IMG/VR virus record: IMGVR_UViG_3300044712_000936
Coordinates: 1 to 64,000 of that record
DNA length: 64,000 nucleotides
Direction: 5' to 3' (one strand)
Origin: a virus
Shown: positions 10,332 to 46,139 of the stretch, one piece after another
How the letters are laid out: every line of letters begins with the position of its first letter
How positions within the stretch are numbered: the first letter of the stretch is position 1
Notes under the pieces: generated by a model
The model's input: only the letters and a program-made list of their open reading frames with translations
Told to the model about the DNA's origin: nothing
Databases searched by the model: none
Position numbers and translations under genes: made by a program

Positions 10332-10360
10332 TTGACAAAACCACAAAAATACTATATAAT
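10332..10360 (+). promoter_or_regulatory. Consensus sigma70/sigmaA promoter
   Basis: TTGACA (10332-10337), 17 bp spacer, TATAAT (10355-10360). Confidence 0.85.
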
Positions 10361-10403: not shown

Positions 10404-10640
10404 ATGACTAGATGGTATGGAGCTAACTTGACTGTTTTGCCCGTAGATGAAGTAGAAGATAGTTTGAGAGAAAAGATGAAAAAAGCAGCCGGGAATAGAA
10501 ACTGGCTGCTGTGGCACGAAATATATGAAATTGGTTATTCTTTATATATTTGTTACAAAGAAGATGGTAAATTAAAAGACTACGAAAAAGTTTTGTGTCG
10601 TATCTTTACACAGCAAGGTGATCGCTGGTACTTTAACTAG
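10404..10640 (+). CDS. Small opposite-strand (moron-like) hypothetical protein
   Basis: 78 aa ORF filling an intergenic gap, behind its own consensus promoter. Confidence 0.6.
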   Translation: MTRWYGANLTVLPVDEVEDSLREKMKKAAGNRNWLLWHEIYEIGYSLYICYKEDGKLKDYEKVLCRIFTQQGDRWYFN

Positions 10641-11848
10641 CGACCTTTACGCAAAGAAGCGCCCAGTTTACGCCGTTTAATAAACCGCCACAAATCAACA
10701 CCTGCCTGTTTAGTACCAAACGGGCAGTTTAATATCTCCTGTGTAGTCTGGTAACTGATTTCTTCTACTTTTGCCAAGTCTGTATTCAGATATTGCAGAT
10801 GTGTTTGGAAATTATTGCAACCACACATTGCCCGATCTGCTAACGTTGTGGCGTAGAATACTATCCGTCTCTCAAACTCTGGATCCATCCGTAAATGGGG
10901 ATAGTCGGAATTATAATTAACTAAACCCGCACGGTATGATACGGTAGTACGATAAGGGAAACCACCTACACAATTGGTAGATGTCCAGCTTCCGGTTGTT
11001 GTATCCCAGGTTGCGTAGGCATATTCTACTGTTCCTCTCCGCGAGTCACGCACGCCTATACGTCCAGTAGTTGTTACTGGATAGGTAATGTCTCCGGCAT
11101 AAAAAGTAGCCTGGACTGAGGGATCAGTATATACACGGTACACATCAACAAGAGATAAAAAGTTAGCATCTACGTCTCCATCCACTTCCATTGTTGGATC
11201 GTTGTCAGATGGTACTTTTTCCTGTAAAGCGGGTTTCACTGCATAAGAACGTGGGAATGTTATAGTAGCGACTCCGGTTAAAATAGTAACACTAACCGGG
11301 CGAATTTCCCACGCATCATCAGCTGATCGACCAGGAAAATATACCGCTATTTCTTCTTTGTCTGTAACGGTTGTTGGAACAACTACGGTAGCTGTTTCAT
11401 CATACCCATCCAGATTTTCATCACTGTAGACTATAGGGGCATCGGCTTCAATAACTGTCTTAGCCCTTATTCCGCCCTCCAACACATAACCGAAACGAGT
11501 AAAGATAGTCCGTAAACCACCTATTGTATTACGTGTGTTGTATAGTTCTGTTCTGTACGATCCCTCAATTTCATGTTCCTCATTTTGTATCCATACAGGA
11601 GTCGGGTAAAAACCAAGTTCGGTAGCTACTTCTTCTTCTGCCTGATGAAGCACATAAGCTAAATCTTCTCGGCTAAACTTACTTGCGTTTTGCCAAGCAT
11701 ATTGATACCAGACATCATCACAGGCGTTACGATTAGGTACACCATAATCAGACACAACACCATTAAAATGATTCGGTTCAATGCCTAAAATTTCAGCTGC
11801 TCGATCCAGAGGGATCAGGGTTCGGGTCGTTGCTCTCGCCATTTTCAT
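10637..11848 (-). CDS. Putative head-tail adaptor/connector protein
   Basis: 403 aa; adaptor-like signature (EEVATELGFYPTP...VSYRAG...DPEFERRIV) and position between head and tail modules. Confidence 0.55.
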   Translation of the reverse strand: MKMARATTRTLIPLDRAAEILGIEPNHFNGVVSDYGVPNRNACDDVWYQYAWQNASKFSREDLAYVLHQAEEEVATELGFYPTPVWIQNEEHEIEGSYRTELYNTRNTIGGLRTIFTRFGYVLEGGIRAKTVIEADAPIVYSDENLDGYDETATVVVPTTVTDKEEIAVYFPGRSADDAWEIRPVSVTILTGVATITFPRSYAVKPALQEKVPSDNDPTMEVDGDVDANFLSLVDVYRVYTDPSVQATFYAGDITYPVTTTGRIGVRDSRRGTVEYAYATWDTTTGSWTSTNCVGGFPYRTTVSYRAGLVNYNSDYPHLRMDPEFERRIVFYATTLADRAMCGCNNFQTHLQYLNTDLAKVEEISYQTTQEILNCPFGTKQAGVDLWRFIKRRKLGASLRKGR

Positions 11849-12329
11849 TAACCTTAGTTAAATTGTTAACTGTAGTCATAACCTGCAATAACTGACATTG
11901 CAGTTCTTGTAAGCAAATTTGGGTGTTTTCACCTACTGTCAGTACGTTTTTTATAAGTATCTCTACAGGCTTTAAAGCTGTTTCAACCGCTTCTTTCATA
12001 TCCACATCGGCTAGGTTAGTAACGCTTTTATCAAGACGATCTACTGTAGTCTGTAATGCGGAATTAGTGATGGCAAATTGGTTCAAAGCTGATGTGTTAT
12101 TTTCTACAGCTTTCTTCGTTTCTCTACCTACTTCTAAATGACTTGCTGATAATTCAATCATTTTGTCTAATATCTCGTTAGTTTGTGCTTTGTCAGCTGT
12201 CACGCTCGTGATGGTCTTTCCAGCAAATCTAAAAGTGAAATATACAACCGCCAAAATTGTAAATAAAATAATAACTACGATGCCTACTGATTCAGGCTTA
12301 CTAAAGACTTTTATAAAAAGATCGTCCAT
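11793..12329 (-). CDS. Single-TM coiled-coil membrane protein
   Basis: N-terminal hydrophobic helix VGIVVIILFTILAVVYF followed by an amphipathic helical region. Confidence 0.6.
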   Translation of the reverse strand: MDDLFIKVFSKPESVGIVVIILFTILAVVYFTFRFAGKTITSVTADKAQTNEILDKMIELSASHLEVGRETKKAVENNTSALNQFAITNSALQTTVDRLDKSVTNLADVDMKEAVETALKPVEILIKNVLTVGENTQICLQELQCQLLQVMTTVNNLTKVNENGESNDPNPDPSGSSS

Positions 12330-12338
12330 ATCAGCAAC

Positions 12339-12623
12339 TTATTCTCCCCATATAAAATGATTAATTAAGATTGCACCTGCGCTACCCGCGAACGGCAGTA
12401 AGACAGGAGGGTAAATCAGGTATGCACCATAACATAAAAAACCTACCCAAACGCTCAGGCACATAAAACAGGATAATAAATATTGAATAGATATATTATT
12501 ATAAACTTTGAACCCGTCCACGCCGAGTTTCAGCCGGACAGGTTCAAAAATTTTCTCTGTGTGGAGAATATTGGTTACTCTCCACACAGCTAAAACGAAC
12601 ATTATAAACCAGCTAAGTGACAT
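12339..12623 (-). CDS. DUF1360-like membrane protein
   Basis: LAVWRVTNIL...IFEPVR...LLSCFMCLSVWVG pattern. Confidence 0.7.
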   Translation of the reverse strand: MSLSWFIMFVLAVWRVTNILHTEKIFEPVRLKLGVDGFKVYNNISIQYLLSCFMCLSVWVGFLCYGAYLIYPPVLLPFAGSAGAILINHFIWGE

Positions 12624-15435
12624 TAGCGAGAGCCTCTCTAATTTTCTTCACGCGGCTTTCCCCGATGCTTGGAATACTCAGCAACAGGGCGTCAGAAGCT
12701 AATGTCAGCTGTCCCACAGTTCGCAAACCGTTTCGTTTAAGGATTGTCTTAATTTCGTGAGCAAGATCAAGACTATCAACTGTTGCTGATGTAGGCTTAA
12801 CGGTTGTTTCTACTTTAATCGGCTTATCTTCTATTACTGCAAGTTCACCCGATTGTACAGCAACTTCCTCTGGTGCTAAAACAAACACACTCAGATCGAG
12901 AAAACGATACAGTTCATCCTTAAAAACAGGGAACACATGATCGCGCTCTATCGTATATTTTTCTCCTAAATGAGTGTGGCTTTTCATATGAAACACACCC
13001 GTTTGAGGGCCAACGTACTTCATGTTAACGAGATCTTGTTTAGGAGCGGTCTTTTTTGTAACACCAGATGTGTTGATACGTACAGTGGGAGTACCCCCAC
13101 AAGATGAGCAACCCATAATAGCACCTTTCTTATAAATGTCTACGTGTTTATCTCTTATATATTTTAACAGATCATTCTTATTAGCAAAATCCTTATCTCT
13201 ATTTAAGCCGGTTCTATACCGATAGGTAAATAAGGGGTGTGCTATACGAGTTCCACAGATACCTTTTTCCAGTAAGGACAGGTGCAAATCCCAGTCCTCC
13301 CATCCTGCTATACTCTCGTCAAAGCCACCAACTGCTAATAAATGATTCTTTTCGTATAACCCGGTAATTGGTCCTATAGCTTTACTGGTTAAGCTTTCAG
13401 CATTCCAATCTTTAGCTGTGTCGTGATAAACATCAGCCCCATTATCAGCATACCAGTCTGTATAAATCCAACCACCGGCTGTTTTATAAACTTTGTACAA
13501 AGCTTCTAGCCAGTAAGGTTGAGCATAATCATCACAATCCAAAAAGGCTATCAAAGGGGCATTTGCCTGTTCTATACCACGATTACGAGCATAAGCTGTA
13601 CCATGATTGGTGTCAGAATCAAGAACCATCACAAAAGGAAAGCCAGCTAAGTACGGGTTAATTAACTGCCCATTCTCATACCAGGATTGACCAGTATCGT
13701 TAACGACAATGACTTCCCAGTTTTGAAAGGTTTGAAATACCAGACTATCTAGACAATCTTGCAAATAAACGTCATGTTCAGGACCAACCGGAATAATCAC
13801 AGAAATCATAGCTGGATTTAATGATCTGATTTTTGAACCGTCTTTTGCTGCAAAGGGTGTCAGATCAGAATGTCTTGCCCACGTAAACCAGGACATAAAA
13901 TCCTCGCCCTTTTTAGTGTGGCTTAAAGAATCCACTCGCATTGTATACAGCAGTGTTGGATATTCACCAATATTTTCTGCCCTAAACCCATAAGATAAAG
14001 CTCTGGTCCAAAAATCAGCATCTTCTACACCAGAGTGAATTCGTCTACGATAGCCACCTGTTCGTTCCCATACTGACTTTCTATACATAGACGCATAAGG
14101 CAGCTGGTTCTGTTTAGCAATCTGGTTTTCGTAACCTGGATTGGGAGGGGGCCATCCAGAAACAAAACTCTTACCGTCTGGATTAAAGACTTGCATAGCT
14201 CCGGTAGCAATATGCACTCCTGGATCCCTATCCAGCGCACGAGACAGCCGTTTTAAAGCGTCTTCGTTTAGACGATCATCAGCATCTAAAGGAATAACGT
14301 ACTCGCCACGAGCTAAGCTAATGCCGATATTACGAGATTCAGAGACATGCTGATTAACTGCATTACGAACAACCCTTATTCGGGAATCTGTTTCTGCAAA
14401 ACTGGTTGCTATTTCTACTGTGTTGTCTGTACTGGCATCATCTACAATAATCAGTTCCCAGTCAGAGAAAGTCTGATTTAAGACTGATTGAATTGCCTGT
14501 GGTAAATATTCAGCCAGATTAAAAGCTGTAATAACTACCGACACCTTGACTGGATAGTTTTTGTTTAGAGCAGCTTCGTAAGCAGTGACATACTGACCAA
14601 CAACATGATTCCATTGATAGCGGTCTACAACAGTTTGTCTAGCCGCTTTGCCCATTTCTTCTCTGTGTTCAAGACAGTAATGCAGACCATCAACCATATC
14701 GTCATAATTACCAGGATCAACCAAGTAACCGTTAACTTTATGAGTTAGTATTTCTGCCTGTCCTCCCCAGTTCCACGACAAAACAGGTACACCACTAGCC
14801 ATAGCTTCGATAATGCCTACGCCAAACGTTTCTTTAGCAGTAGCTAGGTAAACCGAAGTACCGCTGATTATTCGTTTCATATCCTTGTAGGGAAGTCTAC
14901 CGATAACCTGTACATTATCCGTCTGTTTTCCGTAAGTAGTTCTGAAAATAGTATTAGGAACAAGACTTGCTAATGTATTAACTACCGAACTATCACAACT
15001 AGGATCGTGCCTGTTTTTATTCCATAGCACATACCCTAGCGGATCACCAACCTTCCATTCATCCAGATCGACACCATGATTAACAACAACAGGATCTAAT
15101 AACATGCCCCTTTGCAGAACGTTGGCTACCCAACGAGAAGGGACCGTCACCACAGAGGCGCGTCTCATTCCATTAATGATGTCACGATTAGCGTCTAAGG
15201 CCCATTTAGCTCCCCAATTATCCTCTGACCAGTACAAACCGTGACAGGACAGCACCAAATTAGGGTGATTGACTATAGACGTGGCATGACAATTAGCTAC
15301 ATCGGCATCTAGTAAATCCTTAACAATTTCTACCCCGTAATCGGGAAGGTATTTAAGCTGAGCCTCGACACAGCGGCGAATTCCTCCGTCACCAGTATCC
15401 GGCTTGTCAAAAGTAGGGTTTATATATACCTTCAT
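12613..15435 (-). CDS. Multidomain glycosyltransferase GT4-GT2-GT2 with C-terminal CxxC and RNAP alpha-CTD-like HhH domain
   Basis: GT4 ETFGVGIIEAMASG; GT2 VDDASTD, LDADD, EDADFW; second GT2 VNDTG, LDCDD, EDWDL; tail SLDLAHEIKTILKRNGLRTVGQL...LLSIPSIGESRVKKI. Confidence 0.9.
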   Translation of the reverse strand: MKVYINPTFDKPDTGDGGIRRCVEAQLKYLPDYGVEIVKDLLDADVANCHATSIVNHPNLVLSCHGLYWSEDNWGAKWALDANRDIINGMRRASVVTVPSRWVANVLQRGMLLDPVVVNHGVDLDEWKVGDPLGYVLWNKNRHDPSCDSSVVNTLASLVPNTIFRTTYGKQTDNVQVIGRLPYKDMKRIISGTSVYLATAKETFGVGIIEAMASGVPVLSWNWGGQAEILTHKVNGYLVDPGNYDDMVDGLHYCLEHREEMGKAARQTVVDRYQWNHVVGQYVTAYEAALNKNYPVKVSVVITAFNLAEYLPQAIQSVLNQTFSDWELIIVDDASTDNTVEIATSFAETDSRIRVVRNAVNQHVSESRNIGISLARGEYVIPLDADDRLNEDALKRLSRALDRDPGVHIATGAMQVFNPDGKSFVSGWPPPNPGYENQIAKQNQLPYASMYRKSVWERTGGYRRRIHSGVEDADFWTRALSYGFRAENIGEYPTLLYTMRVDSLSHTKKGEDFMSWFTWARHSDLTPFAAKDGSKIRSLNPAMISVIIPVGPEHDVYLQDCLDSLVFQTFQNWEVIVVNDTGQSWYENGQLINPYLAGFPFVMVLDSDTNHGTAYARNRGIEQANAPLIAFLDCDDYAQPYWLEALYKVYKTAGGWIYTDWYADNGADVYHDTAKDWNAESLTSKAIGPITGLYEKNHLLAVGGFDESIAGWEDWDLHLSLLEKGICGTRIAHPLFTYRYRTGLNRDKDFANKNDLLKYIRDKHVDIYKKGAIMGCSSCGGTPTVRINTSGVTKKTAPKQDLVNMKYVGPQTGVFHMKSHTHLGEKYTIERDHVFPVFKDELYRFLDLSVFVLAPEEVAVQSGELAVIEDKPIKVETTVKPTSATVDSLDLAHEIKTILKRNGLRTVGQLTLASDALLLSIPSIGESRVKKIREALANVT

Positions 15436-16136
15436 TAATTCTCCGGTTGAACGTTATTTAAAGAAGCATTCATGCCAATATTTTTAAATGGTGAACACTG
15501 AAAATGACTGGCTATGTTAGCAGGGAATAATATCTCAGGAGGATTAGGGCTGGTATTATACCTGCCACACATATTTAACTCCTCCGCACCGGGGTTAACT
15601 CCTTCTTGATGATAGCCAATAGTATTATACCAGTTAACAGATCGTAAAGAAATCTGTCCAGAATAAGCGTACTGATCGGAGTTGGGTACAATGCGCCAGT
15701 AACACATCGGCCCATAACCCTCGACGTCACCAACCAGATCAGCCTTTATGCCGTGTGACAAATAGCCTAAACGAATCACGCCCACCCTCGGATTAGCAAT
15801 CAAAAGGTCAGCATAGGATGTGATATTAAACTTATCAGCTAAACACCAATCATCTTCTAGTAATAAAACAAGTCTGGTTGAGATAAAAGCTTGACGCAAA
15901 GCTATGTTTTTACTTGCTCCAACACCATGCCGATTTGCATTAGTAACAAAAACCTGTTCATTGGGCAGCAGACCTTTTAACTGATCAATATAGGCAGTAG
16001 GACTACCGTCATCGGCTATAATCCAAAATCGTGGGCCATCATCGTAAACTAAATTATCTCTTAGCGAGATAATTGTAGGAACTGCTGTTGACGGTCTGTT
16101 GTAAGTTGTAACAATAATTCCTAATGGTTCTCGCAT
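15435..16136 (-). CDS. Glycosyltransferase family 2
   Basis: IVTTYNRP, IADDGS, LLEDDW motifs. Confidence 0.85.
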   Translation of the reverse strand: MREPLGIIVTTYNRPSTAVPTIISLRDNLVYDDGPRFWIIADDGSPTAYIDQLKGLLPNEQVFVTNANRHGVGASKNIALRQAFISTRLVLLLEDDWCLADKFNITSYADLLIANPRVGVIRLGYLSHGIKADLVGDVEGYGPMCYWRIVPNSDQYAYSGQISLRSVNWYNTIGYHQEGVNPGAEELNMCGRYNTSPNPPEILFPANIASHFQCSPFKNIGMNASLNNVQPEN

Positions 16137-16336
16137 TTATTATACTTCCTATATTTACTGTAATCTCCTAAGTAATCGTACTCTAAATGTTCGTCATATA
16201 AAACTTTTCCACAAGTGTAACATGTCGTTCTACAGTAATTGTGAACAGTGTAGAGTTTATTTGGCTCTATCTCACAAACACCTTCAAACATTCTTGAGAA
16301 ATGTATATCTCTATGTCTGCAAAGAAATTTTAGCAT
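16121..16336 (-). CDS. Hypothetical Cys-containing protein
   Basis: 71 aa, KFLCRH and CYTCGK motifs, in operon. Confidence 0.5.
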   Translation of the reverse strand: MLKFLCRHRDIHFSRMFEGVCEIEPNKLYTVHNYCRTTCYTCGKVLYDEHLEYDYLGDYSKYRKYNKCENH

Positions 16337-16338
16337 GG

Positions 16339-16713
16339 TTATTTATCCTCAACAGGACGATGGGTATTATTATAATTTCTAGCACCTTCCGAAGACTTAC
16401 AACGTTTAAAAAACATATAATCCTCTTGGCTTTTCTGTATAATATCTTCTTCAGTTAAATGTGCGTTTTTCCTATTTGTAGTTAATTTATAATAATCAAT
16501 AACGTCGTCAAAAATACTTATGTTTTTACTCGCTAGCACTTTATGACACATACTACACTCATAACATATTTTTGCGTCTATTCGCCAATTCAAATATTGA
16601 TAAGTGACTTTACCTATATCAAAAGCGAGAAACGTTTTCCTGTGAATTCCCAACTTACACAGTAACTTACTCATCTTCTGTATGCCTAAATAAGAATCTA
16701 TCGTCATAGTCAT
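16339..16713 (-). CDS. Hypothetical protein (probable start near MSKLLCKLGIH)
   Basis: LLCKLGIH...CSMCHK, in operon. Confidence 0.5.
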   Translation of the reverse strand: MTMTIDSYLGIQKMSKLLCKLGIHRKTFLAFDIGKVTYQYLNWRIDAKICYECSMCHKVLASKNISIFDDVIDYYKLTTNRKNAHLTEEDIIQKSQEDYMFFKRCKSSEGARNYNNTHRPVEDK

Positions 16714-16954
16714 ATTTTGGATCGTACTTTGGGTAGTGTTTCCTAGCAGTCGTCCATCCTAAACTACCATCATATTCGTCTGCACGAACGAGATAACCCT
16801 GTTCATCTAAGGCAACTTTTACTACATTACCGTTTGACACATAGTATGTAGGATAAGACATCCTTTCAAGCATATCCCTGACAGCATGAATGTCGTTTTT
16901 AATTCCCTCTAACAAAGTGATTATAGTTTGCTCGTCCATTCTGGTTCCTTCCAC
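16667..16954 (-). CDS. Hypothetical protein
   Basis: 95 aa ORF overlapping its neighbours in the operon. Confidence 0.5.
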   Translation of the reverse strand: MEGTRMDEQTIITLLEGIKNDIHAVRDMLERMSYPTYYVSNGNVVKVALDEQGYLVRADEYDGSLGWTTARKHYPKYDPKYDYDDRFLFRHTEDE

Positions 16955-17694
16955 TCAGCAGTTAAATCATTACGTAACTGTACCATAAAATCACCATAAC
17001 GAGAGGCACTCTCTAAAGTATATCGCTGATCATGCTCCCGTACAATATAAAGGGGGTTGCCTTCGTCAATTTTGTGAAGATGTTCTGGTAAATGAACCAT
17101 CATCACACTGATTAAAGCCGCATCCATGCCCCCGGTAACTGTCATGGGGTGTAAACCACCTGTTTTATTCCACAAGCCTTTAGTTACCACATTAGCATGA
17201 TTAAACCAGCTTATAACATCAGTTGTACCCATTATCTGACAGCTAAAATTGTACAGACCTAATGGATCACCTATTTTAACGATTGTTTCTTTAGCTTTTT
17301 CTATAGCCATAGGGTGTAAAATATCGTCTGAGCCTAGCTGTAAAACGTATTCATTTCTGGCAAGAGCTATCCCATAATTAAAAGCTGTAACAACACCCGA
17401 TAACCAGGGAGTTTTAAACATAGAAATTGCTATAGGTATTCCGCGTATAGGTTGTTCTTCACTTAGGTATATTGCTTTATGGTTGATACCCAAACGAGCT
17501 ATTTGTGTAGAATTTTCCCAGGTTATATAATCGTCCATTTTTATATCTGCCTGATCATTAATTAACAAAATTTCATCAGGCAAATCTGTTTGATATAGAA
17601 CACTGTTAATGCATTCAGATAGCCACTGTTTGTGGCATTCTTTAGGGCCAACAGGGATAGTTACAGTTAGCTTAATATCAGATAAACTTGGCAC
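16921..17694 (-). CDS. Glycosyltransferase family 2
   Basis: VTIPVGP, INDQA, LGSDD (DxD-like) motifs. Confidence 0.8.
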   Translation of the reverse strand: MPSLSDIKLTVTIPVGPKECHKQWLSECINSVLYQTDLPDEILLINDQADIKMDDYITWENSTQIARLGINHKAIYLSEEQPIRGIPIAISMFKTPWLSGVVTAFNYGIALARNEYVLQLGSDDILHPMAIEKAKETIVKIGDPLGLYNFSCQIMGTTDVISWFNHANVVTKGLWNKTGGLHPMTVTGGMDAALISVMMVHLPEHLHKIDEGNPLYIVREHDQRYTLESASRYGDFMVQLRNDLTAEWKEPEWTSKL

Positions 17695-18469
17695 GCAAAC
17701 CCCTCATTTCCTCGATCATTTGCTGGAAAGACTTGTGAACCATAATCTGATCGTCTTTGTGTATTGACGCCAGAGTTCGATCAATTCGAACCACAGGATC
17801 AGGGATAATAGTCTTTCCCCAATCATAGACATCGTTGACAATTTTGAGCATTTCATATTTACTTACAGTCTCCGCACCATGAATGTGAATCAGATTTGTA
17901 TTTACGTGATGGTTAGCGTAGTAGATTAAGATGTGCGATAGTTCCGCTGTAGTAATACCGTTCCACAAGGCATTTGACCAGCCCATAACGGCTGATGTTT
18001 GCTGCTGAAACCAACCTAACAAGGAGCGCCGTTTTGGATCCGGATAACCCACAAAACTACAGCGAACGGTTAAATGGTTATCCCAGGTAATCTCACCGAG
18101 AGCTTTAGAGTACCCGTAGGCGTCAATTGGTGTTGGATAATCACTCTCATCATAACCACCAACGTCACCATTAAACACGCAATCGGTTGAAACGTGTATC
18201 ATCCGAATACCCATCGTATCGCAAACCTGAGCAATAAGGCGGGGAGCATAAGCATTCACACGAAAATGATCCATTTCAGGTGCTGATTTTATAGTCAAAC
18301 CAGCGCAGTTAACAACAACGTTAGGTCTATGTTTATGCAGGATTTCACGAACCTGATATGGATTAGTTATATCACAGGTAGCACGAGTAAACGGAATTAC
18401 CTCGGGATACAACTGGCACAACTGAGATCCTAACAGACCGTTTGCCCCAAATATAGCTATTTTTGTCAT
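17678..18469 (-). CDS. RmlD-like NDP-4-keto-6-deoxysugar reductase (extended SDR)
   Basis: GANGLLG, NCAG, STDCVF, YGYSK motifs. Confidence 0.9.
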   Translation of the reverse strand: MTKIAIFGANGLLGSQLCQLYPEVIPFTRATCDITNPYQVREILHKHRPNVVVNCAGLTIKSAPEMDHFRVNAYAPRLIAQVCDTMGIRMIHVSTDCVFNGDVGGYDESDYPTPIDAYGYSKALGEITWDNHLTVRCSFVGYPDPKRRSLLGWFQQQTSAVMGWSNALWNGITTAELSHILIYYANHHVNTNLIHIHGAETVSKYEMLKIVNDVYDWGKTIIPDPVVRIDRTLASIHKDDQIMVHKSFQQMIEEMRGLRAKFI

Positions 18470-18642
18470 GAATTCCTCGACAGTCGCCTTTTAAATATGC
18501 AGATATAGGTTTTAACAAAACCATCCTGAACAAAAACGGATATGAGTTCCCATCCTGCCTCCCCCCAGTCATTCAACATATCTTCTAGGCGAGGAGACAA
18601 GCTTAGTTTCTCTATTACCTTATATTCGTAAGCTACAGCCAT
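18466..18642 (-). CDS. DUF4177-like small protein (58 aa, not in the ORF track)
   Basis: Manual translation MAVAYEYKVIEKLSLSPRLEDMLNDWGEAGWELISV...IFKRR; TGATG and ATGA overlaps with its neighbours. Confidence 0.75.
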   Translation of the reverse strand: MAVAYEYKVIEKLSLSPRLEDMLNDWGEAGWELISVFVQDGFVKTYICIFKRRLSRNS

Positions 18643-19184
18643 CAGGTTTTTCTGACTATATAAGAAATACCGGGAGTACCAACAAATTCGTAATGAGACG
18701 GAACCAAATCCAAATACTCATGAACGGCAGTTGCTACCCCATTTGTACCGTTCTTTTCGAGATCAACATAGTCATGAAACCACACATAGCCACCGACCAC
18801 AACATGAGGCCAGTAGGCTTTTATGTCGTTGAACACAGACAAAGCAGAATGATCGGCATCTACAATAAGTAATGAGATGTTATCAAAATCATTCTCTACC
18901 AGTTTCAACACACCTACTGTATCTCCACAAACTACATAACTGGAAAAACCGGAGGCATGTAGGTGTGCCTCATAAGTCTTAATCACAGCCGGATTGTTGT
19001 CTACGGCTATAATATTAAGGGTGGGATTACCTTCTAACAAGGCTAAGGACATCAATCCTGGTCCGGCCCCTAACATACAGACCTTTGCCCCTGTATGCAA
19101 AGTTTTGGCTAGATTTTGGAGGTATTCTATTTCATTTCCGAATGTGTAAGGTAGAATTTCATTCCGTTGAGCCGCCGTTAGCAT
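18642..19184 (-). CDS. Class I SAM-dependent methyltransferase (Methyltransf_24-like), probably sugar O-methylation
   Basis: LGAGPG, VDADHS, GGYVWFHDY motifs. Confidence 0.8.
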   Translation of the reverse strand: MLTAAQRNEILPYTFGNEIEYLQNLAKTLHTGAKVCMLGAGPGLMSLALLEGNPTLNIIAVDNNPAVIKTYEAHLHASGFSSYVVCGDTVGVLKLVENDFDNISLLIVDADHSALSVFNDIKAYWPHVVVGGYVWFHDYVDLEKNGTNGVATAVHEYLDLVPSHYEFVGTPGISYIVRKT

Positions 19185-20120
19185 TTAAGAATCCTTTAAT
19201 AGCTGCTTAAGTTCGTCACTAGTTAGCCAGTGACTAGGGCAATCGCTTGTATATTCGTATTGAAACAACAAATTTGTACCAACATTTTTCTGAGGATCGT
19301 TTACAATAAAGTGCTCACCAATATCGTAGGTATGCATCGATTCTTCTCTAACAATCAGAGTTTCGTGCAGCCGCTCACCAGGACGAATACCGATGTATTT
19401 AATGTCTCTGTTTGGATCTAACGTCTTAGCTAACTCTACAATAGACATAGCGGGTGCTTTAGGGACAGTAATTGTTCCTGCCTCTGATTTTTCCAGAGCA
19501 AACAGAATAAGATCAATCGCCTGTTTCATTGACAGCCAGAAACGAGTCATCTTTTCGTGGGTAAGGGTAAAAGGCTTACCGTCAGCCATTTGACGCTCTA
19601 ACAAGGGCACAAGAGAATTGGCACTCTTAAGGACGTTCCCATAACGAACCGAAACAAATTCGGTATCTCGCCAATTGTTAGCTTCTCTGAAAATACCCTC
19701 TCCAAGACGCTTAGTGACCCCGTAATAGGTAGGACCACAGGCTTTGTCACTGGAAATGAGGATAGCACGCTCAACGTTTGCCTCTGCGCTGGCAATAGCT
19801 ACGTTCTTAGTGCCCTCTACGTTACAGGTAACAGCTTCTTTAACATTGATCTCTGCTACAGGAACGATCTTCAACGCAGCTGCATGAATAACAACCTGAT
19901 GTCCTGGTAAAATAGTTCTTAACCAGTCCAGATCTCGTACATCACCAATTTTACAATCCACATTAGGGAATTCAGACTTAACCTGAGAGATCTTTGTTTC
20001 GTTCCGAGCAAGAATAGTAAACTGTGTGTCCCAGTTCTCATCTCGTGCTCGTTTAAGAATTGCCTTGCCTAAACTACCACTTCCACCAGTTATCAGAACG
20101 CGCTTACCGGATAGTATCAT
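19185..20120 (-). CDS. UDP-GlcNAc 4,6-dehydratase (PseB/FnlA/CapD-like, Polysacc_synt_2)
   Basis: TGGSGSLG, HAAALKIVP, ISSDKA, YGVTK, RYGNV, MTRFW, GIRPGERLHE; SD AGGAG before ATG 20120. Confidence 0.9.
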   Translation of the reverse strand: MILSGKRVLITGGSGSLGKAILKRARDENWDTQFTILARNETKISQVKSEFPNVDCKIGDVRDLDWLRTILPGHQVVIHAAALKIVPVAEINVKEAVTCNVEGTKNVAIASAEANVERAILISSDKACGPTYYGVTKRLGEGIFREANNWRDTEFVSVRYGNVLKSANSLVPLLERQMADGKPFTLTHEKMTRFWLSMKQAIDLILFALEKSEAGTITVPKAPAMSIVELAKTLDPNRDIKYIGIRPGERLHETLIVREESMHTYDIGEHFIVNDPQKNVGTNLLFQYEYTSDCPSHWLTSDELKQLLKDS

Positions 20121-20155
20121 TCTAGTCTCCTGAATCAAAAAAGTGTATACCTACT

Positions 20156-20184
20156 AGTATACACTTTAACTCATTATATGTCAA
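20156..20184 (-). promoter_or_regulatory. sigma70-type promoter for the sugar biosynthesis genes, overlapping a terminator-like hairpin
   Basis: TTGACA, 17 bp, TATACT on the minus strand; inverted repeat AAAGTGTATAC/GTATACACTTT with a T-tract at ~20137-20167. Confidence 0.65.
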
Positions 20185-20191
20185 GTTTATA

Positions 20192-20740
20192 TTAAAAAGA
20201 CTCTGGGGTACTGCCAACCATTTGTTGTAATAGAACAGCGTCAACTAATATGTAGTTAAAATGATCTATTCTGTTAGAAACTAATCCAGCCGCTTGATAG
20301 GGATTAGCCGGATCAAACGAGGCACTAAACCAATATCTTTTTGCTCTATCTGTTTCTGGATCATAAGCTCTAATCTCCATTGCAACAACTACGGGAGTAT
20401 ACCCGCCAAGATCAGAACTAAATGTGTCCCAATTCCAAGCATTCCAATTTATAGAATCTGGCATATTTTCTATATACTGGTAAATTGGAATTTTCGCCCA
20501 CAAAGATATATAACCCGATAAATTAATATTACAAGTTCTAATATTTTCTGGACGAGATACATCACAAATACTGTTTTCCCCCTCAACAAATTTGTAATGG
20601 TGATAATCTTGTCCGTCATTGTATTGAATTATTAATTCAAACACATCGTTTGGATTGATTCCATTTAAAATACTGGATTGTGCTTGAACTGGCTTAACTA
20701 GAACAAGAATTAAAATAAAAACAAACAATAGCTGTTTCAC
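20192..20740 (-). CDS. Secreted/exported hypothetical protein
   Basis: Probable GTG start at 20740 after SD AAAGG; signal peptide (M)KQLLFVFILILVLVKPVQA. Confidence 0.65.
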   Translation of the reverse strand: MKQLLFVFILILVLVKPVQAQSSILNGINPNDVFELIIQYNDGQDYHHYKFVEGENSICDVSRPENIRTCNINLSGYISLWAKIPIYQYIENMPDSINWNAWNWDTFSSDLGGYTPVVVAMEIRAYDPETDRAKRYWFSASFDPANPYQAAGLVSNRIDHFNYILVDAVLLQQMVGSTPESF

Positions 20741-20771
20741 ACTACAACCTTTCGCCCAACCATGCGTCAAA

Positions 20772-21215
20772 CTATCCCGCCGTTTCCCATGCCGCCGCGT
20801 TTGACGCCAGATATGCGCCACATTCGATGCGACTTTCTGCCCAACTGGGCCACGTTGTGCCGTCATAGCCAAAGAGCGCCACTCGCAAATAGGCCGTGCT
20901 GGAGCGCGAAAACGTCACGACAGCGGTCTGTTTGCTGGCGAACGTTTGCAGGCTGGTTGCATGGGTAATGGTTGCGGCGCTCACCCCGAAAATCGCGGCT
21001 AATCGGTCTTTAAACGCCTGGATACTGATGGTATTCTCGTCAAACTCTGCCTCGAAAATGACCGCCTCGTTATCCAGCCGTGTGCGCCAGTGGTTACGGT
21101 AGGCGGGCTGTGGGTCGTTGTTGTTGCGTCCGAGGGCACGCAAGGCGGTCACGAGTTGGTTGCGCTGTGTTGCTGTGAGTGCTAGATTAATCGCTCCGAA
21201 GTAGACGTGTGCCAT
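20772..21215 (-). CDS. Hypothetical protein (high-GC block)
   Basis: Start MAHVYFG coupled to the LamG gene by a TAATG overlap. Confidence 0.65.
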   Translation of the reverse strand: MAHVYFGAINLALTATQRNQLVTALRALGRNNNDPQPAYRNHWRTRLDNEAVIFEAEFDENTISIQAFKDRLAAIFGVSAATITHATSLQTFASKQTAVVTFSRSSTAYLRVALFGYDGTTWPSWAESRIECGAYLASNAAAWETAG

Positions 21216-21940
21216 TAGACCCTCGCCAGTTGCGCCCATTTGGGCAGACCCAGCGGCGCGTTACAGGTGAAAGCGTGCTGAATCCGACCTAACCAAACAG
21301 ACGATGCGCTGTTGAAATTAACTGACCCGATGGATCGCCAGCTTGCCACGCCCCCCACGTAGGCGTTCGGATAGGCTGCGTCTGCCCCAACTCGCACACC
21401 GTTGACAATTGCGCGAATATAATTACCTGCAACACTCCACTCCAACCCCAATAACAGCGGTGTTGTCACTGTGGAGACATAGGTTCGATCCAGGCGGTCT
21501 ACCCCGCCTGTAGGGACATAAAATCTCAACGTATTAGCGAAAGCCTTGTAAATCAAAAAACGATTACTGGCGTCTTGCCCGATATGAAGAACAACCCTAT
21601 CGTCTTCCCCTACCCAACACGCCGCATCAGCCATTACCCACGCGCCCATTGCGCCTTCAGCCGGGTTAAAAACGCCATTGAGCGTTGTGGGCATGGCAAT
21701 ATAGTCATTCGTGCCATCAAAGTAGTAGGAGGTTCTGCCGTCGCCAATGCCCACCTGCCCAACCGTAGCCCCTGTGTTAGTAGCATTGAAGGAATTCCCG
21801 GAAATGTCATAAACGGTTGTACCTAATGATTCTCCTAAAGGCCATAGAGTTACACGAGACGATCCAAGAATAGTAAGAATATTTTGCCAGTAAGCTTGTA
21901 TATTCTCTTCGCCACCATTTAATACAATATCTATAGTCAT
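21215..21940 (-). CDS. LamG/concanavalin A-like lectin domain virion protein
   Basis: LWPLGE...YDISGN...SYYFDGTNDY...VNGV...WLGRI pattern. Confidence 0.8.
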   Translation of the reverse strand: MTIDIVLNGGEENIQAYWQNILTILGSSRVTLWPLGESLGTTVYDISGNSFNATNTGATVGQVGIGDGRTSYYFDGTNDYIAMPTTLNGVFNPAEGAMGAWVMADAACWVGEDDRVVLHIGQDASNRFLIYKAFANTLRFYVPTGGVDRLDRTYVSTVTTPLLLGLEWSVAGNYIRAIVNGVRVGADAAYPNAYVGGVASWRSIGSVNFNSASSVWLGRIQHAFTCNAPLGLPKWAQLARV

Positions 21941-21941
21941 T

Positions 21942-22337
21942 TTATGGCGCTATACTCATATAAGTAATTTTATCTCCAGCAACGGAACCTATATAAAACA
22001 ATAAACTCATGTTAGTTACAGGAATCCATCCCGAATCAGACCCCGGCCCAAGAATCAGTCCGGTTGAAGTGTCTTGAGTACCGTCTGTTATAGATACACT
22101 GGCATTCCATCCAATATGAATATACCCTGTGTTTAAAGGATGTGTTCTAAACTTAATCATGTCACAGGCTATATTAGGACACTGTTTTGCTGTGACAGCA
22201 ACAATTAACTCCCCCGTTCTAACCGTAGTATAAGGATAAGGTCTGGTTCTGCCAATAAGAAGATCAGGCGTGTTAATGGCCTGTTCATCCCTCATATTGT
22301 AAACAGGAAGTGGATTTCCGCCAAGTGGAAAAGTCAT
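21942..22337 (-). CDS. Hypothetical small beta-rich virion protein
   Basis: 131 aa with SD AAAGGAG; NTGYIHIG...GLILGPG pattern. Confidence 0.55.
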   Translation of the reverse strand: MTFPLGGNPLPVYNMRDEQAINTPDLLIGRTRPYPYTTVRTGELIVAVTAKQCPNIACDMIKFRTHPLNTGYIHIGWNASVSITDGTQDTSTGLILGPGSDSGWIPVTNMSLLFYIGSVAGDKITYMSIAP

Positions 22338-22401
22338 TTAATATACTCCTTTAGCAAATTAATATGCTATTAGTATACTGATGAAAGGAGTACAATAAAA
22401 A

Positions 22402-23067
22402 TTATGCAGGTTCCATCTCTGATAGACTTGGAACTTTATCTTGCCCCTCGTGATAAAACTTATGAGGAAGAGCGAGCATGATCTTTAATCGATTCGGATC
22501 GTCTGCCCATTTAACTGTTGCAATCCGCTCAACCTCACAAGCATTGATACCTTCTTCCCACTCTCCATATCGATCTGTCCATCTTTTATGAAATATTTCC
22601 GGCCTGTGACCTACACAGAATCCATAATTATCGAGATTCAATGCCCAACCTTGCCAATCAGTAGTCACAATCTCTACGTTACCTCTTTGGAAAGGGTGTG
22701 GTGGGCCTAGACGCATGATCCCTATGTTGTCATTTTCCAAGAGAGCTTTACACCAAGGATTCAAATCAAGAGGTTCAAGTAGTTGCCAGTCGTCAACTAA
22801 ATACATAACGAGGGGAGAAGTCTTGTAAGCTTCTGCAAAACCTTTATTCAAAGAAGCCCCTACACCACGTCTTTCTTGTCTTGAAAAGGTAATAGGACCA
22901 TTCCAAACTGGATTCCATTGTACAAAGGAACCGTCATCAGCTACATGAAGTCTGATAGTTCCATCATAGATAAAGTTTCGCCAACTTAACAGAGTTTTTT
23001 CAGCGATTTCTTTTCTTTGTTCGTCTCTGAAATAGGTCGTCATAACTATAGTTAAATCTGGTAACAA
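22402..23067 (-). CDS. Glycosyltransferase family 2
   Basis: VMTTY, VADDGS, LVDDW; TTG start with SD AAGGAG; resembles 15435-16136. Confidence 0.85.
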   Translation of the reverse strand: MLPDLTIVMTTYFRDEQRKEIAEKTLLSWRNFIYDGTIRLHVADDGSFVQWNPVWNGPITFSRQERRGVGASLNKGFAEAYKTSPLVMYLVDDWQLLEPLDLNPWCKALLENDNIGIMRLGPPHPFQRGNVEIVTTDWQGWALNLDNYGFCVGHRPEIFHKRWTDRYGEWEEGINACEVERIATVKWADDPNRLKIMLALPHKFYHEGQDKVPSLSEMEPA

Positions 23068-23077
23068 GGTAAACTCC

Positions 23078-23545
23078 TTAGTTTAATTTAAATCCAACTA
23101 CAACTAATCGACTATAACCTTCACAGGTAATTAGCGTTAACTGCTCACCGCCCAAAGAAGGTGCTAACCACTGCGTTTCTGAAATATCTATGTTGTGGTA
23201 TATATTTACCACTTCATAAGTTTCTTTATAATTTAGTGTGTATAAATAGATATAGTCACCTATATACAATTCATCCAGTCGTTCAAACGCACCGTTACTA
23301 TGACCAGCTAATACGACTGTTCCCCAATCATCAGTAATCCAATTCGTTTCTTCTAACCATCCAGCACCGTTACTACCCACTACGTCCATATTATACTGTC
23401 TATTAACAATCGGAATTTCTTGCAGAGGTCTCCATAGATCAATAGATGGTATAACTAACCATCCTACAGGTTTATCTTGGACTTGTATGGATGATACGGG
23501 CAAGATAAAATAGATAATAATAAGAATTAATAAAAAGGTTTTCAT
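23078..23545 (-). CDS. Sortase (class D/F-like)
   Basis: N-terminal anchor, LVIPSI, LAGHS (His), LTLITC (Cys), RLVV (Arg). Confidence 0.9.
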   Translation of the reverse strand: MKTFLLILIIIYFILPVSSIQVQDKPVGWLVIPSIDLWRPLQEIPIVNRQYNMDVVGSNGAGWLEETNWITDDWGTVVLAGHSNGAFERLDELYIGDYIYLYTLNYKETYEVVNIYHNIDISETQWLAPSLGGEQLTLITCEGYSRLVVVGFKLN

Positions 23546-23565: not shown

Positions 23566-23600
23566 AAAAGAGGCCTATATTTTATTATAGACCTCTTTTT
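23566..23600. terminator. Intrinsic terminator after the major capsid gene
   Basis: AAAAGAGG-CCTATA...TATAG-ACCTCTTTTT hairpin with A/T tracts on both sides. Confidence 0.7.
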
Positions 23601-23620
23601 ATTACTAGTCAACTATTAAA

Positions 23621-25093
23621 TTACTGGGCACGAACATCCACTGAAGCATAAGAGTACGGAGTACCCTGGCTGACAGTTGTGTTACCACCGTCAACGAAAT
23701 ATGGATCATCGTGGAACGGCTGACGCGGGATCTGGAGCGGGCAAACCATAACGTTCTGGATTCTACCAGCCAGATGCGGGGTCAACAGGCGCAGACGTGG
23801 ACGAATGAGTGTGGTCCAGTCAAAGCAGTATAGCGTCTGTCGAGGAGTCCACAGCCACATACCACCGTCCGACCAGATCAGATTCGAAACACGACCATCT
23901 GCCGCTAATTCACCAGCAGCCCCTGGACCTGCAAAGTTGAAATATTCCATGTACAGCACCTGAGTATTACCCTTAACCGTAAACGGCAGGAGGTAAATAT
24001 CAGACAGCATACAACCGCTAGGAACATCACCATCGTTTTCATTGTAGGTCACAGAAATTGAATCGTCAACAATCACCGGAATACGAACACCGTCAATTGT
24101 CAGATAATTCCCGTTAAACATATCATCAGACATCCGGCGCATTGCCATTGCATCTGTGTTGTTGGCTAGCTGATTAGCTGTTGCACCGCAACGGTAACTA
24201 GCATACACACAGGGCCAATAGTCTGTCAGTTCACGGAACATCGGTTCTGTCATGACCCACGCCCACTGAACGGGACGCATGTTCATTCGAGAAGCGTTGT
24301 GGTTCACATAGCGCCACATCGTAGTCATATAGTGGAACAGAGTAGCCGCAGCCTGATCGACACGCTGGCTACCAAAGTCTTTAATATCGCTTGCCAGTGA
24401 GGGGCAGTTTGCGCCAGTGATAATGTCGGTATGGGTTGTTGTAACCAAACCCTCTAAGCCGAGAAATTCAGCATAGCCTGTACCAAGATTATTCAGGGGT
24501 GAACCTGTCCAAACCATATGGCTCAGAACATCTTCAAGTTCAACACCAACTGCAAGCATCTTTGCCGCCAAGTCAGAGGCGAACACCTTACGAGCGCCAC
24601 CAGTAATTCCTGGGGGCAGCATTTTCTCAGCAACATCAACGATTGGATCATTGACTAGCTGCAAATCAAACATCTCGCCACGATTGATCCGATCACCCGA
24701 TGCTGACAGATCAATAACCTCTGTAGTACGAGCGATACGGCCCATAGCTGAACCCTGCAAACAGGATTTCATCTGACCGGGGCGCGGTGGATCCGCACAA
24801 GGAGTAGACTGTTCAGCAGCACCATTACCAGCTGTAAAGCCTGTCAAATATCCAACAATAGGGTGCGTGTCGTTTGTGGCACGCGCAGCAGGCAGAGCGG
24901 CGATCAGACCCTTAGCATTAACGCGAGTTGAGAAAATATCACGTTCAATACCGGGGTAACTAAAGATACCGTTACTGCCATGCACCCGATTGGTAGAAAT
25001 TGAAAAACCAGCGGGTAAATCGTGCTTCTGCCGCTCACTCAAATGCGGAGTTAACAACTGAGCAAGAGCATTTACAAGTTCATTACCGTCCAT
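23621..25093 (-). CDS. Major capsid protein
   Basis: 490 aa after protease/scaffold and before a terminator; IDGVRIPVIVDD, SDIYLLP. Confidence 0.8.
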   Translation of the reverse strand: MDGNELVNALAQLLTPHLSERQKHDLPAGFSISTNRVHGSNGIFSYPGIERDIFSTRVNAKGLIAALPAARATNDTHPIVGYLTGFTAGNGAAEQSTPCADPPRPGQMKSCLQGSAMGRIARTTEVIDLSASGDRINRGEMFDLQLVNDPIVDVAEKMLPPGITGGARKVFASDLAAKMLAVGVELEDVLSHMVWTGSPLNNLGTGYAEFLGLEGLVTTTHTDIITGANCPSLASDIKDFGSQRVDQAAATLFHYMTTMWRYVNHNASRMNMRPVQWAWVMTEPMFRELTDYWPCVYASYRCGATANQLANNTDAMAMRRMSDDMFNGNYLTIDGVRIPVIVDDSISVTYNENDGDVPSGCMLSDIYLLPFTVKGNTQVLYMEYFNFAGPGAAGELAADGRVSNLIWSDGGMWLWTPRQTLYCFDWTTLIRPRLRLLTPHLAGRIQNVMVCPLQIPRQPFHDDPYFVDGGNTTVSQGTPYSYASVDVRAQ

Positions 25094-45007: not shown

Positions 45008-45844
45008 CTAATTAAAATCAGCAAAGGATAGGATATGAACAATGACATCAGCCGTAAAAGCGTTGCCTAAACATCTATACCGCTGTGTATCTGATGTTCT
45101 TTTACCGTTCGCCCCAAACTCTGTATACCCATCCGGTAAAGTCTGTAGCCGCTCACATTCCACAGGAGTTAACATCCGAATGACATTCCCCCGATCACTG
45201 ACCAGGGTTCTAGCCCCTACCGTATTTCCATAAACGATCTGCCTGTGAGATCTGTCCAGGTATTGCTTTTCGTTTGTTCCCCTGTAATACTGAGCATCAA
45301 TACACAAAGATTTGTCCCGATCTACGCTATCTCCCTCGAGAATGTCCTTCAGGAGAATATGCTTATCCTCGGGTTGAGTAACACCCTGTATATTCGTCCA
45401 GTAGAGCCGCCTCCGACTTTGAGCACTCACTAACGCACTGTTAATCTTAATTGGCTCTACTCCGATAGCAGCAGTTATCGTATCACGCCATTCTTTTTTA
45501 ACTACCGCAATGTTTTCTAAAACAAAATATTTAGGCTGGACTGCCTTTAGTATTCGCAAATACTCATAAAACAATCCCGAACGATCCCCTGCTAAACCTG
45601 CACCCAATCCAGCAGAAGATATATCCTGACAAGGTGAACCACCGATCAACAGATCAATAGGGGGCAGAGAAGCAACAGTCCTGACATCCCCCAACTGAAT
45701 AATAGCCGGATGGTTCTTAGCTGAAATCCGCAGAGCATACTTATCAATTTCAGAAGCGTAATAAGTACAATCCAGATGGAGACGATCAAGAGCGACCTTA
45801 GCTACAGAAATGCCGTCAAATAGACTTAGAACATTAAAAACCAT
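45008..45844 (-). CDS. DNA cytosine-5 methyltransferase
   Basis: LSLFDG, GGSPCQD, LENI, AQSRRRLYW, ECERLQ, LGNAF. Confidence 0.92.
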   Translation of the reverse strand: MVFNVLSLFDGISVAKVALDRLHLDCTYYASEIDKYALRISAKNHPAIIQLGDVRTVASLPPIDLLIGGSPCQDISSAGLGAGLAGDRSGLFYEYLRILKAVQPKYFVLENIAVVKKEWRDTITAAIGVEPIKINSALVSAQSRRRLYWTNIQGVTQPEDKHILLKDILEGDSVDRDKSLCIDAQYYRGTNEKQYLDRSHRQIVYGNTVGARTLVSDRGNVIRMLTPVECERLQTLPDGYTEFGANGKRTSDTQRYRCLGNAFTADVIVHILSFADFN

Positions 45845-46139
45845 GTGTGTTCTGATTCCATGCTGCATGATCATACTCTATTGCATCAAATAAAGCCCCC
45901 CACAAATCATTCTCCGATAGAATATAAATAACAGTCCCATCCCGTTTATGATCAGCAAGGTACTGATCAGCCTCTTCTTTACTATTAACTATAATAAGGG
46001 TAGAGTATTCTTCGTGTGGTGTGCCTGTATCAAAAACAAAGTATCTCATTATAATCTCCTAACTACGTGGAATGATGTATGGATCACGCTCTGGCACAAC
46101 AGGACTTCATGTTTTGAACTCTTTTGTCGGTCTTTAAGT

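Follow-up and report, generated by a model that had tools for sequence, protein, structure and literature searches.

A capsid-linked island of glycan-synthesis genes in an uncultured phage lineage as a candidate system for virion glycosylation

Why would a phage keep a set of genes for building a glycan between its capsid gene and its neck genes, and on which molecule would that glycan be built? The question is raised by positions 12613 to 23067 of a 64,000-nucleotide stretch (the window), which is the first 64 kb of IMG/VR virus record IMGVR_UViG_3300044712_000936, a complete, uncultured virus record of 87,169 bp with direct terminal repeats. A preliminary description of the window had proposed that this interval encodes a pathway for a rare sugar donor and a set of glycosyltransferases (GTs) that decorate the virion. 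With slightly better than even confidence, we read it as a capsid-linked island for glycan synthesis, through which virion proteins would be glycosylated in the cytoplasm. The named island genes are all on the minus strand, and the interval runs from the start of the first GT2 gene (23067) to the stop of the gene for a 940-aa GT (12613). A search of the whole 87-kb genome placed every GT2 domain and every short-chain dehydrogenase/reductase (SDR) sugar enzyme inside this interval and found neither elsewhere.

Assignment with Pfam and NCBIfam hidden Markov models confirmed the four GT genes with six GT domains described earlier (Table 1). The most widespread gene of the island encodes the 940-aa protein (the triple GT), in which a Glycos_transf_1 domain (GT4, GT-B; 2.2e-19) is followed by two GT2 domains (7.1e-57; stretches 299-445 and 545-649) and by a C-terminal helix-hairpin-helix (HhH) that resembles the C-terminal domain (CTD) of RNA polymerase alpha and scored 23.1 bits, just under the cut-off. 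The family of the 233-aa GT2 usually stands right after the dehydratase gene in relatives, and the 257-aa GT2 accompanies the reductase. The 221-aa GT2 had the weakest of the six domains (20.2 bits versus a cut-off of 23.3) and is a clear paralogue of the 233-aa protein, as indicated by BLAST cross-hits. No transmembrane segment was found in the triple GT or in any of the nine catalytic domains of the GTs, dehydratase, reductase and methyltransferase.

The donor enzymes reported earlier, a PseB/FnlA-like dehydratase, an RmlD-like reductase and an S-adenosylmethionine (SAM) methyltransferase, were all recovered by profile and PDB matches. The dehydratase matched PF02719 (Polysacc_synt_2) over profile positions 1-291 of 293 (251.9 bits versus a cut-off of 20.2, E 9.8e-75) and stayed below the equivalog cut-offs of PseB (TIGR03589, 260.6 bits versus 407.75) and FnlA (TIGR04130, 173.7 bits versus 730); by these profiles it is a member of the family and an orthologue of neither. 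Its PDB matches included H. pylori PseB (2gn4, 201 bits), the A. baumannii dehydratase/5-epimerase 4j2o, S. aureus CapE and Mg534 of Megavirus (4tqg, 137 bits), with scores falling in the order PseB, FnlA-type, CapE, Mg534 and retaining PglF. The motifs GGSGSLG, SSDKA and YGVTK aligned with GxxGxxG, Asp-Lys and YxxxK of 2gn4. Since the enzyme groups with C5-inverting dehydratases, its expected product is UDP-4-keto-6-deoxy-L-N-acetylhexosamine (HexNAc). Only nine GenBank phage records, mostly unannotated, matched the dehydratase.

The reductase matched PF04321 (RmlD_sub_bind; 107.5 bits versus a cut-off of 27, E 8.8e-31) and fell below the equivalog cut-off for dTDP-4-dehydrorhamnose reductase (TIGR01214, 113 bits versus 224). 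GANGLLG, STD and YGYSK were present and the Thr/Tyr/Lys triad was kept. Where the best PDB match, the RmlD protein 3sc6, has STDYVF, the phage enzyme reads STDCVF, and ST[DN]CVF was invariant in the phage copies of the reductase (9/9). In GDP-fucose synthase (GMER), too, a Cys lies two residues after the catalytic Ser/Thr. The reductase is a candidate 3-epimerase/4-reductase. Between the dehydratase and reductase genes lies the methyltransferase gene, whose product also matched rhamnosyl O-methyltransferase/CmcI weakly (8e-4) and is a candidate sugar methyltransferase.

Because a dehydratase of this type is combined with an RmlD-like reductase and with a methyltransferase encoded between them, a rare, possibly methylated 2-acetamido-2,6-dideoxyhexose donor, as put forward in the preliminary description, is a sound inference from enzyme homology. 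The Cys of STDCVF and the parallel with Mg535 of Megavirus, a 270-aa RmlD-like 3-epimerase/4-reductase that makes UDP-N-acetyl-L-rhamnosamine (UDP-L-RhaNAc) and conserves a catalytic Cys (PMC9614988), lead us to favour UDP-2-acetamido-2,6-dideoxy-L-hexose, a UDP-6-deoxy-L-HexNAc of predicted stereochemistry, with L-RhaNAc as the leading candidate. In the proposed route, the dehydratase would convert host UDP-GlcNAc to UDP-4-keto-6-deoxy-L-HexNAc by 4,6-dehydration and C5 inversion, the RmlD-like enzyme would epimerise C3 and reduce C4, and the adjacent methyltransferase would methylate the sugar. The six soluble GT domains would then assemble a short hetero-oligosaccharide in the cytoplasm directly on a virion protein, the candidate acceptors being the capsid protein, at its disordered C-terminal tail with Ser and Thr residues, or accessory head proteins of the island. 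We infer which sugar is made, what is methylated, in what order the GTs act and what accepts the glycan. The pathway had been called self-contained, which is too strong, since no nucleotidyltransferase is encoded and UDP-GlcNAc and the other donors have to be supplied by the host. Pfam and NCBIfam profiles of a UDP-HexNAc 2-epimerase (Mg536/WbvD-like) had no match among the open reading frames (ORFs) of the island and its flanks.

Table 1. Features of the island and its surroundings (window positions unless stated otherwise)
Feature	Position	Strand	Basis or remark
Major capsid protein, 490 aa, upstream island boundary	23621-25093	-	AlphaFold2 model, HK97-fold match
Triple GT, 940 aa, GT4 + GT2 + GT2, then C-terminal HhH	12613-15435	-	Pfam
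GT2-like glycosyltransferase, 233 aa	15435-16136	-	Pfam GT2 7.9e-07
GT2 glycosyltransferase, 257 aa	16921-17694	-	Pfam GT2 6.6e-10
GT2-like glycosyltransferase, 221 aa	22402-23067	-	Pfam GT2 6e-4
UDP-GlcNAc 4,6-dehydratase, inverting PseB/FnlA type, 317 aa	19185-20138	-	PF02719
RmlD-like NAD(P)H 4-ketoreductase, 263 aa	17678-18469	-	PF04321
Class I SAM methyltransferase, 180 aa	18642-19184	-	Methyltransf_24 8.8e-10
DUF1360 membrane protein with two transmembrane segments, 94 aa	12339-12623	-	Start overlaps end of triple-GT gene
Adaptor-like protein, 403 aa, downstream island boundary	10637-11848	-	AlphaFold2 model, VIA search
Membrane-anchored sortase, 155 aa	23078-23545	-	Pfam Sortase
131-aa protein	21942-22337	-	Homologues in L002, L003
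LamG/concanavalin-A-like jelly-roll protein, 241 aa	21215-21940	-	Protein atlas
155-aa protein, phage-specific	20772-21239	-	
226-aa protein (p226), signal-peptide-like hydrophobic segment	20192-20872	-	Listed start TTG
Three small ORFs, 95/124/71 aa	16121-16954	-	Low-GC stretch of island
Terminator-like hairpin, 14-bp stem then T-run, overlapped by TTGACT-17-TATAAT (11/12)	23566-23612	-	Directly after capsid stop
Terminator-like hairpin, overlapped by TTGACA-17-TATACT (11/12)	20140-20184	-	Just upstream of dehydratase
Large terminase	28289-29911	-	Then portal, two unassigned genes, 490-aa gene
C5-cytosine DNA methyltransferase	45008-45874		94 bits
Tyrosine recombinase/integrase	79371-79874 of genome, outside window		75 bits

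That the island lies between capsid and neck genes, as claimed earlier, agreed with models of the two boundary proteins. The 490-aa protein had no Pfam or PHROG match, and its AlphaFold2 model (32 homologues, pLDDT 70.6) matched HK97-fold capsids in Foldseek with probability 1.00 (E 7e-10 in PDB and 1.5e-15 in BFVD). The C-terminal tail, which has Ser and Thr residues, was disordered in this model (residues 467-486 with pLDDT below 50), and its motif Y-F-V-[DN]-G-G-x-[ST]-[ST]...P-S/Y was kept across the capsid family. On the other side, the gene for the 403-aa protein is the first one past the island that relatives conserve. Its model (pLDDT 85.8) had no significant Foldseek match. In a wide VIA search the six best chains were all neck or head-to-tail adaptors (Z 7.6 to 4.5), from a gene transfer agent (GTA), phage 812, Mycofy1, DT57C, Milano and Mu, the best four Z values (7.6, 7.0, 6.3 and 5.9) lying in a middling range. 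As a lead from the model, this protein is probably a head-to-tail adaptor into which a beta domain has been inserted.

The capsid protein had at least 270 metagenomic homologues, of which the closest were 74% and 72% identical to it. None of 50,697 GenBank phage records matched it, and the lineage has no cultured member. A locus search with the single capsid sequence returned nothing and an alignment-based scan succeeded, yielding 65 IMG/VR loci and 3 contigs from metagenome-assembled genomes (MAGs), which were compared by BLAST of the window proteins and by grouping all ORFs beyond the capsid gene into families. The MAG bins (Nitrosotalea, Methylobacter and Anaerolineae) were rejected as evidence of a host, one of them being a whole phage-sized contig. 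At least one homologous GT was present between the capsid and adaptor-like genes in 46 of the 49 loci that extended 5 kb or more past the capsid gene or reached the adaptor-like gene, and the dehydratase was present in 26 of the 49. The GT-bearing island was kept down to ~30% capsid identity. Judged from these loci, a GT island is the rule in this phage lineage and no oddity of one phage.

The individual genes differed in how widely they were shared. Full-length homologues of the triple GT were present in 34 loci, and 8 more had short single-domain forms (365-373 aa) that matched its GT2 region (query residues ~296-842 in BLAST). The dehydratase was found in 35 related loci, where it usually starts 70-230 nt past the capsid stop codon, and the small GT2 family of the 233-aa protein in 34. 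The reductase and its partner GT2 occurred in 8 loci each, the methyltransferase type of the window in 10 and another type in 15, and the methyltransferase gene adjoins the dehydratase gene in L002 and L004. The gene for the DUF1360 protein was present in 23 loci, and in each of them it stood between those for the triple GT and the adaptor-like protein. Among the 25 fully bounded loci the smallest island, of two genes and no GT, measured 0.9 kb and the largest, that of the window, 11.8 kb; a 10-kb flank limit cuts off many islands outside these 25.

Two of these proteins varied in their architecture among relatives. The dehydratase was split by an intein with a LAGLIDADG endonuclease in L006 (18186-20246), L027 and L067, giving 686-696 aa in total. 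The last ~100 residues of the triple GT (window 12613-13135) differed from relative to relative and resembled nucleic-acid binders: the RNA polymerase alpha CTD-like HhH occurred in this phage and in L066, and AT-hook-like (RGRPKK, PRKRGRPRK) or basic tails occurred in at least seven relatives (loci with noted tails: L045, L049, L053, L054, L056, L063 and L066). The short GT forms terminated in Thr-runs.

The contents of the interval were highly variable. The 459 ORFs fell into 189 families, most of them present in one or two loci, and the interval held from one GT domain up to 15 genes, including branches for 6-deoxy-L-HexNAc, amino sugars and sugar kinases. Relatives added a GHMP kinase (18 loci), a cREC_REC domain protein (10) and DegT aminotransferases (3), and their intervals also held homing endonucleases (HNH, LAGLIDADG/intein), a metallophosphoesterase, malectin, GH26 and an Ig-like beta-helix. 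Such variety would suit a glycan made for a soluble or secreted product, or a hotspot of accessory genes with no common acceptor, in which case proximity to the capsid gene would reflect a permissive insertion site. We consider this quite unlikely, however, as the triple GT and the pair of dehydratase and small GT2 recurred in 34-35 loci in an order fixed relative to the capsid and adaptor-like genes. Because of this recurrence in fixed order, we favour selection for a specific function over random cargo.

The island types clustered on the capsid tree, with 2 changes per trait versus 7-11 in shuffles; the tree was a quick maximum-likelihood IQ-TREE tree in which related sequences share labels, which weakens the shuffle test. 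This clustering lends weak support to the view that island and capsid were mostly inherited together. A bolder proposal, which we hold to be possible and well short of probable, is that the interval is a hypervariable "particle serotype locus" that resembles O-antigen loci: it would diversify along with the capsid and give the head glycans particular to each lineage. The glycan of this phage would then include a methylated 2-acetamido-2,6-dideoxy-L-hexose from a giant virus-like two-enzyme route, and the DNA-binding-like tail of the triple GT could link glycosylation to the place where DNA is packaged.

The GTs might instead modify the host envelope. Being soluble, they would extend lipid- or wall-linked glycans of the host (O-antigen, teichoic acid or S-layer glycan) in lysogeny or late infection, so as to block superinfection or to stop progeny from sticking to debris, and the sortase and a secreted protein would act on the same surface. 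This explanation draws on the tyrosine integrase, on membrane or secreted proteins encoded in the island and its flanks (sortase, p226, DUF1360 and p178), on 11/12 promoter-like sites placed exactly at two internal boundaries beside terminator-like hairpins, as in a moron, and on the fact that many envelope GTs are soluble and depend on a host priming enzyme. However, neither family of priming phosphoglycosyltransferase (PGT; PF02397 and PF00953) is present in the genome, although host enzymes could substitute, and no GtrA/GtrB-type membrane GT was found; nor was a flippase-like or polymerase-like protein among the island ORFs scanned. With no priming transferase of either family and no transmembrane segment in the catalytic domains, the gene content makes a lipid-linked pathway run by the phage itself unlikely. 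Conversion genes are normally sporadic, whereas this island lies beside the capsid gene in 46/49 relatives and tracks the capsid tree. The sortase, the LamG protein and the secreted protein are absent from all relatives and thus cannot account for the conserved part. Overall, we regard modification of the host envelope as unlikely.

The tail of the triple GT and the C5-cytosine methyltransferase bear on a different acceptor, DNA. The triple GT, led by its DNA-binding-like tail, would in that case add sugars to modified bases as a protection against restriction. The HhH of the 940-aa protein and the HhH or AT-hook-like basic tails at the same position in relatives would suit such a role, the encoded cytosine methyltransferase makes 5-methylcytosine (5mC) in the phage DNA possible, and there is precedent for phage GTs that hypermodify DNA with a variety of glycans (Pyle 2024, as related in PMC12619734). 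Yet the complete genome has no gene of the dCMP/dUMP hydroxymethylase family (PF00303) and no TET/JBP dioxygenase, the sole PF12851 match (14.7 bits) being on the opposite strand with a stop codon inside, so that no hydroxyl acceptor on DNA is predicted. The island also lies in the head module, away from the replication genes. Six GT domains and a 6-deoxy-HexNAc pathway would exceed any DNA glycan known to us, and we judge DNA glycosylation highly improbable.

On indirect grounds, glycosylation of the virion is the best explanation of the island, because its synteny is fixed, the DNA route and a phage-run lipid route are unlikely, actinobacteriophages provide a precedent, and the capsid tail is disordered and conserved. 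Several observations weigh against it. No acceptor site was identified, the other structural proteins share no C-terminal motif with the capsid tail, and the tail is also kept in L062, the sole fully bounded relative without a GT. A tblastn search with the 940-aa GT, the only GT used for comparison with mycobacteriophages, matched 102 of the 50,697 phage records at E<=1e-8, none of them from a Mycobacterium phage. The triple GT ends in a DNA-binding-like tail, an HhH in this phage and AT-hook-like in relatives. A small two-transmembrane DUF1360 protein, the only membrane protein of the conserved cassette, is kept at the end of the island, and a literature search for this family returned no functional information in titles or abstracts. 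Expression from a prophage is possible because sigma70-like promoters (11/12) overlie the hairpins before the sortase block and the dehydratase gene and a tyrosine integrase is encoded. Soluble GTs can also act on lipid-linked intermediates of the host.

To our knowledge, actinobacteriophages are the only phages whose particles have been shown by experiment to be glycosylated, and in them the glycan weakens antibody recognition. As far as the cited accounts describe them, these phages (Che8, Corndog/cluster O and Myrna; Freeman et al. 2023) carry glycans on the C-termini of capsid and tail-tube subunits, placed there by phage GTs (PMC11600133, PMC12619734). According to the same accounts, they share with the present phage both phage-encoded GTs and an O-methyltransferase gene, and the capsid protein here has a disordered Ser/Thr tail. 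In contrast, the tblastn search with the 940-aa GT detected no sequence similarity to their GTs, and the island adds a dehydratase and reductase pathway and a three-domain GT. Moreover, the present phage has a genome of 40% GC and belongs to an uncultured lineage.

The mg534-mg539 cluster of Megavirus chilensis has a parallel gene set. Its 4,6-dehydratase/5-epimerase and its RmlD-like reductase of ~270 aa with a catalytic Cys have predicted counterparts in the phage, both have a single-domain GT and a three-domain GT, and the phage also has further GT2 genes. The fibrils of Megavirus carry 4-OMe-L-RhaNAc (PMC9614988), a methylated 6-deoxy-HexNAc on the particle, whereas the corresponding sugar of the phage is predicted from its genes. 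The phage lacks an Mg536-like 2-epimerase and a pyruvyl transferase, its dehydratase resembles bacterial PseB more than Mg534, and the acceptor would be an HK97-type head instead of a fibril layer. The earlier comparison of the phage to a giant virus rather than to a typical siphovirus thus holds for the gene set, but an island of this kind is usual in the phage lineage itself.

In the bacterial pathways for pseudaminic acid (PseB), N-acetyl-L-fucosamine (L-FucNAc; FnlA-C/CapE-G) and L-RhaNAc or N-acetyl-L-quinovosamine (L-QuiNAc; WbvB/WbvR/WbvD), the first enzyme is of the same family as the phage dehydratase, with the motifs kept, and the pairing of a dehydratase with an RmlD-like reductase presumably follows the logic of WbvB/WbvR. 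Unlike these pathways, the phage has no CapF/FnlB-type reductase and no 2-epimerase, and the window has no PseC-type aminotransferase, although three relatives have one. Phage-encoded GTs are shared with the T4 alpha/beta-GT, the 5-hydroxymethylcytosine (5hmC)-glycan systems (Pyle et al. 2024) and Gtr seroconversion. The DNA-directed systems differ in that this genome has no pathway for hydroxymethylated bases and its island lies in the head module, and Gtr-type seroconversion differs in its GtrA/GtrB/GtrC-type membrane components, which this phage lacks along with a PGT. In an Asgard-archaeal virus, a comparable module, with three GTs, a 4,6-dehydratase and a SAM methyltransferase, was given the same interpretation (PMC13700489). 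What is new here is the lineage-wide picture for one capsid family, the two-enzyme route of PseB type and Cys-bearing RmlD type, and the separation of the conserved cassette from an insert with the sortase and LamG genes.

If virion glycosylation is confirmed, it would be common among environmental phages, since metagenomes contain at least 270 homologues of this capsid protein. Its genes would form a variable locus, much like the surface-antigen loci of bacteria, and it would bring to phage heads rare sugars that have until now been associated with the capsules of bacteria and the fibrils of giant viruses. The dehydratase and the reductase with its invariant Cys together offer a compact candidate route of two enzymes to UDP-6-deoxy-L-HexNAc. 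In soil, such a glycan could serve particle stability, adhesion to polysaccharide matrices or shielding from recognition by hosts or predators.

The conserved cassette starts at the dehydratase gene. The block from the sortase gene to the p226 gene (20192-23545) is bounded at both ends by a terminator-like hairpin with a promoter-like signal. Having such signals of its own, it appears to be an inserted unit outside the conserved cassette; the insert would be a later one and probably has a separate role. The two promoter-like sites were the only minus-strand sites of such quality in 19 kb. The sortase, LamG, 155-aa and p226 proteins had no homologue in the 68 related loci, and neither had the three small ORFs at 16.1-17.0 kb, which matched no family, or a 178-aa and a 107-aa protein. 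The LamG gene, listed with the pathway genes in the preliminary description, consequently sits in the phage-specific insert, outside the conserved cassette. The naming of its product as a LamG protein stood in part. A protein atlas placed it with Laminin_G_3 phage proteins (feature score 0.99, 193/256 features shared) and gave structural TM scores of 0.74-0.82 to Laminin_G_3 clusters, a lead from a single source, and PHROGs gave weak matches to a virion structural protein, but Pfam returned nothing even at E<=5.

The sortase gene lies directly after the capsid gene, and its product had one weak match in GenBank phages. The protein matched PF04203 (59.2 bits versus 26.6, E 4.5e-16) and TIGR01076 (44.8 versus 39.35) and reached no class-level cut-off. 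Its His (LAGH) and Cys (LITC) aligned to SrtD (4d70), and with its N-terminal transmembrane segment it looks intact and membrane-anchored. A whole-genome motif scan for an LPXTG-type substrate gave only chance-level hits, the only match in a real large gene being an LPATG inside a 661-aa protein, at its residue 191 (genome 84879-86864). From its hydrophobic segment, p226 is probably secreted, with its true start downstream of the listed TTG. The 131-aa protein may be a head accessory protein, because homologues lie between the capsid and dehydratase genes in L002, directly after the capsid gene, and in L003.

Where the window has the LamG gene, the closest relatives encode large carbohydrate-binding or -cleaving proteins directly after the capsid gene (L005:3635-7561 and 11226-13532, L006:12610-15012). 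These comprise a protein with malectin, GH26 and Gp37-like domains (1308 aa), a malectin protein (769 aa) and an Ig-like protein with a beta-helix (800 aa).

The GC content was ~40% across the window, and the composition of the island was not foreign. The minus strand carries the genes from ~3 to 47 kb. PHROGs matched nothing for most head genes, and GenBank phages had no nucleotide match to the island. The region was present in two rhizosphere metagenome DNA runs only, and no RNA dataset with it was listed. A search for tail sheath families found none, and further on there is a 1384-aa tape measure gene, both of which are consistent with a siphovirus-like tail. The phage may be temperate, as a tyrosine integrase is encoded.

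Two further features were observed near the downstream boundary. A 504-aa protein at the tail-tube position (8423-9937) has an N-terminal domain of ~110 aa followed by a BNR/Ycf48-like beta-propeller, which had an atlas TM score of 0.9 to phage clusters and was kept in 16 relatives. Between the adaptor-like gene and the next gene, a 78-aa ORF to which no family was assigned runs antisense in the late operon (10404-10640, plus strand), with a perfect 12/12 sigma70 promoter at 10332-10360 and a terminator-like hairpin at 10702-10727.

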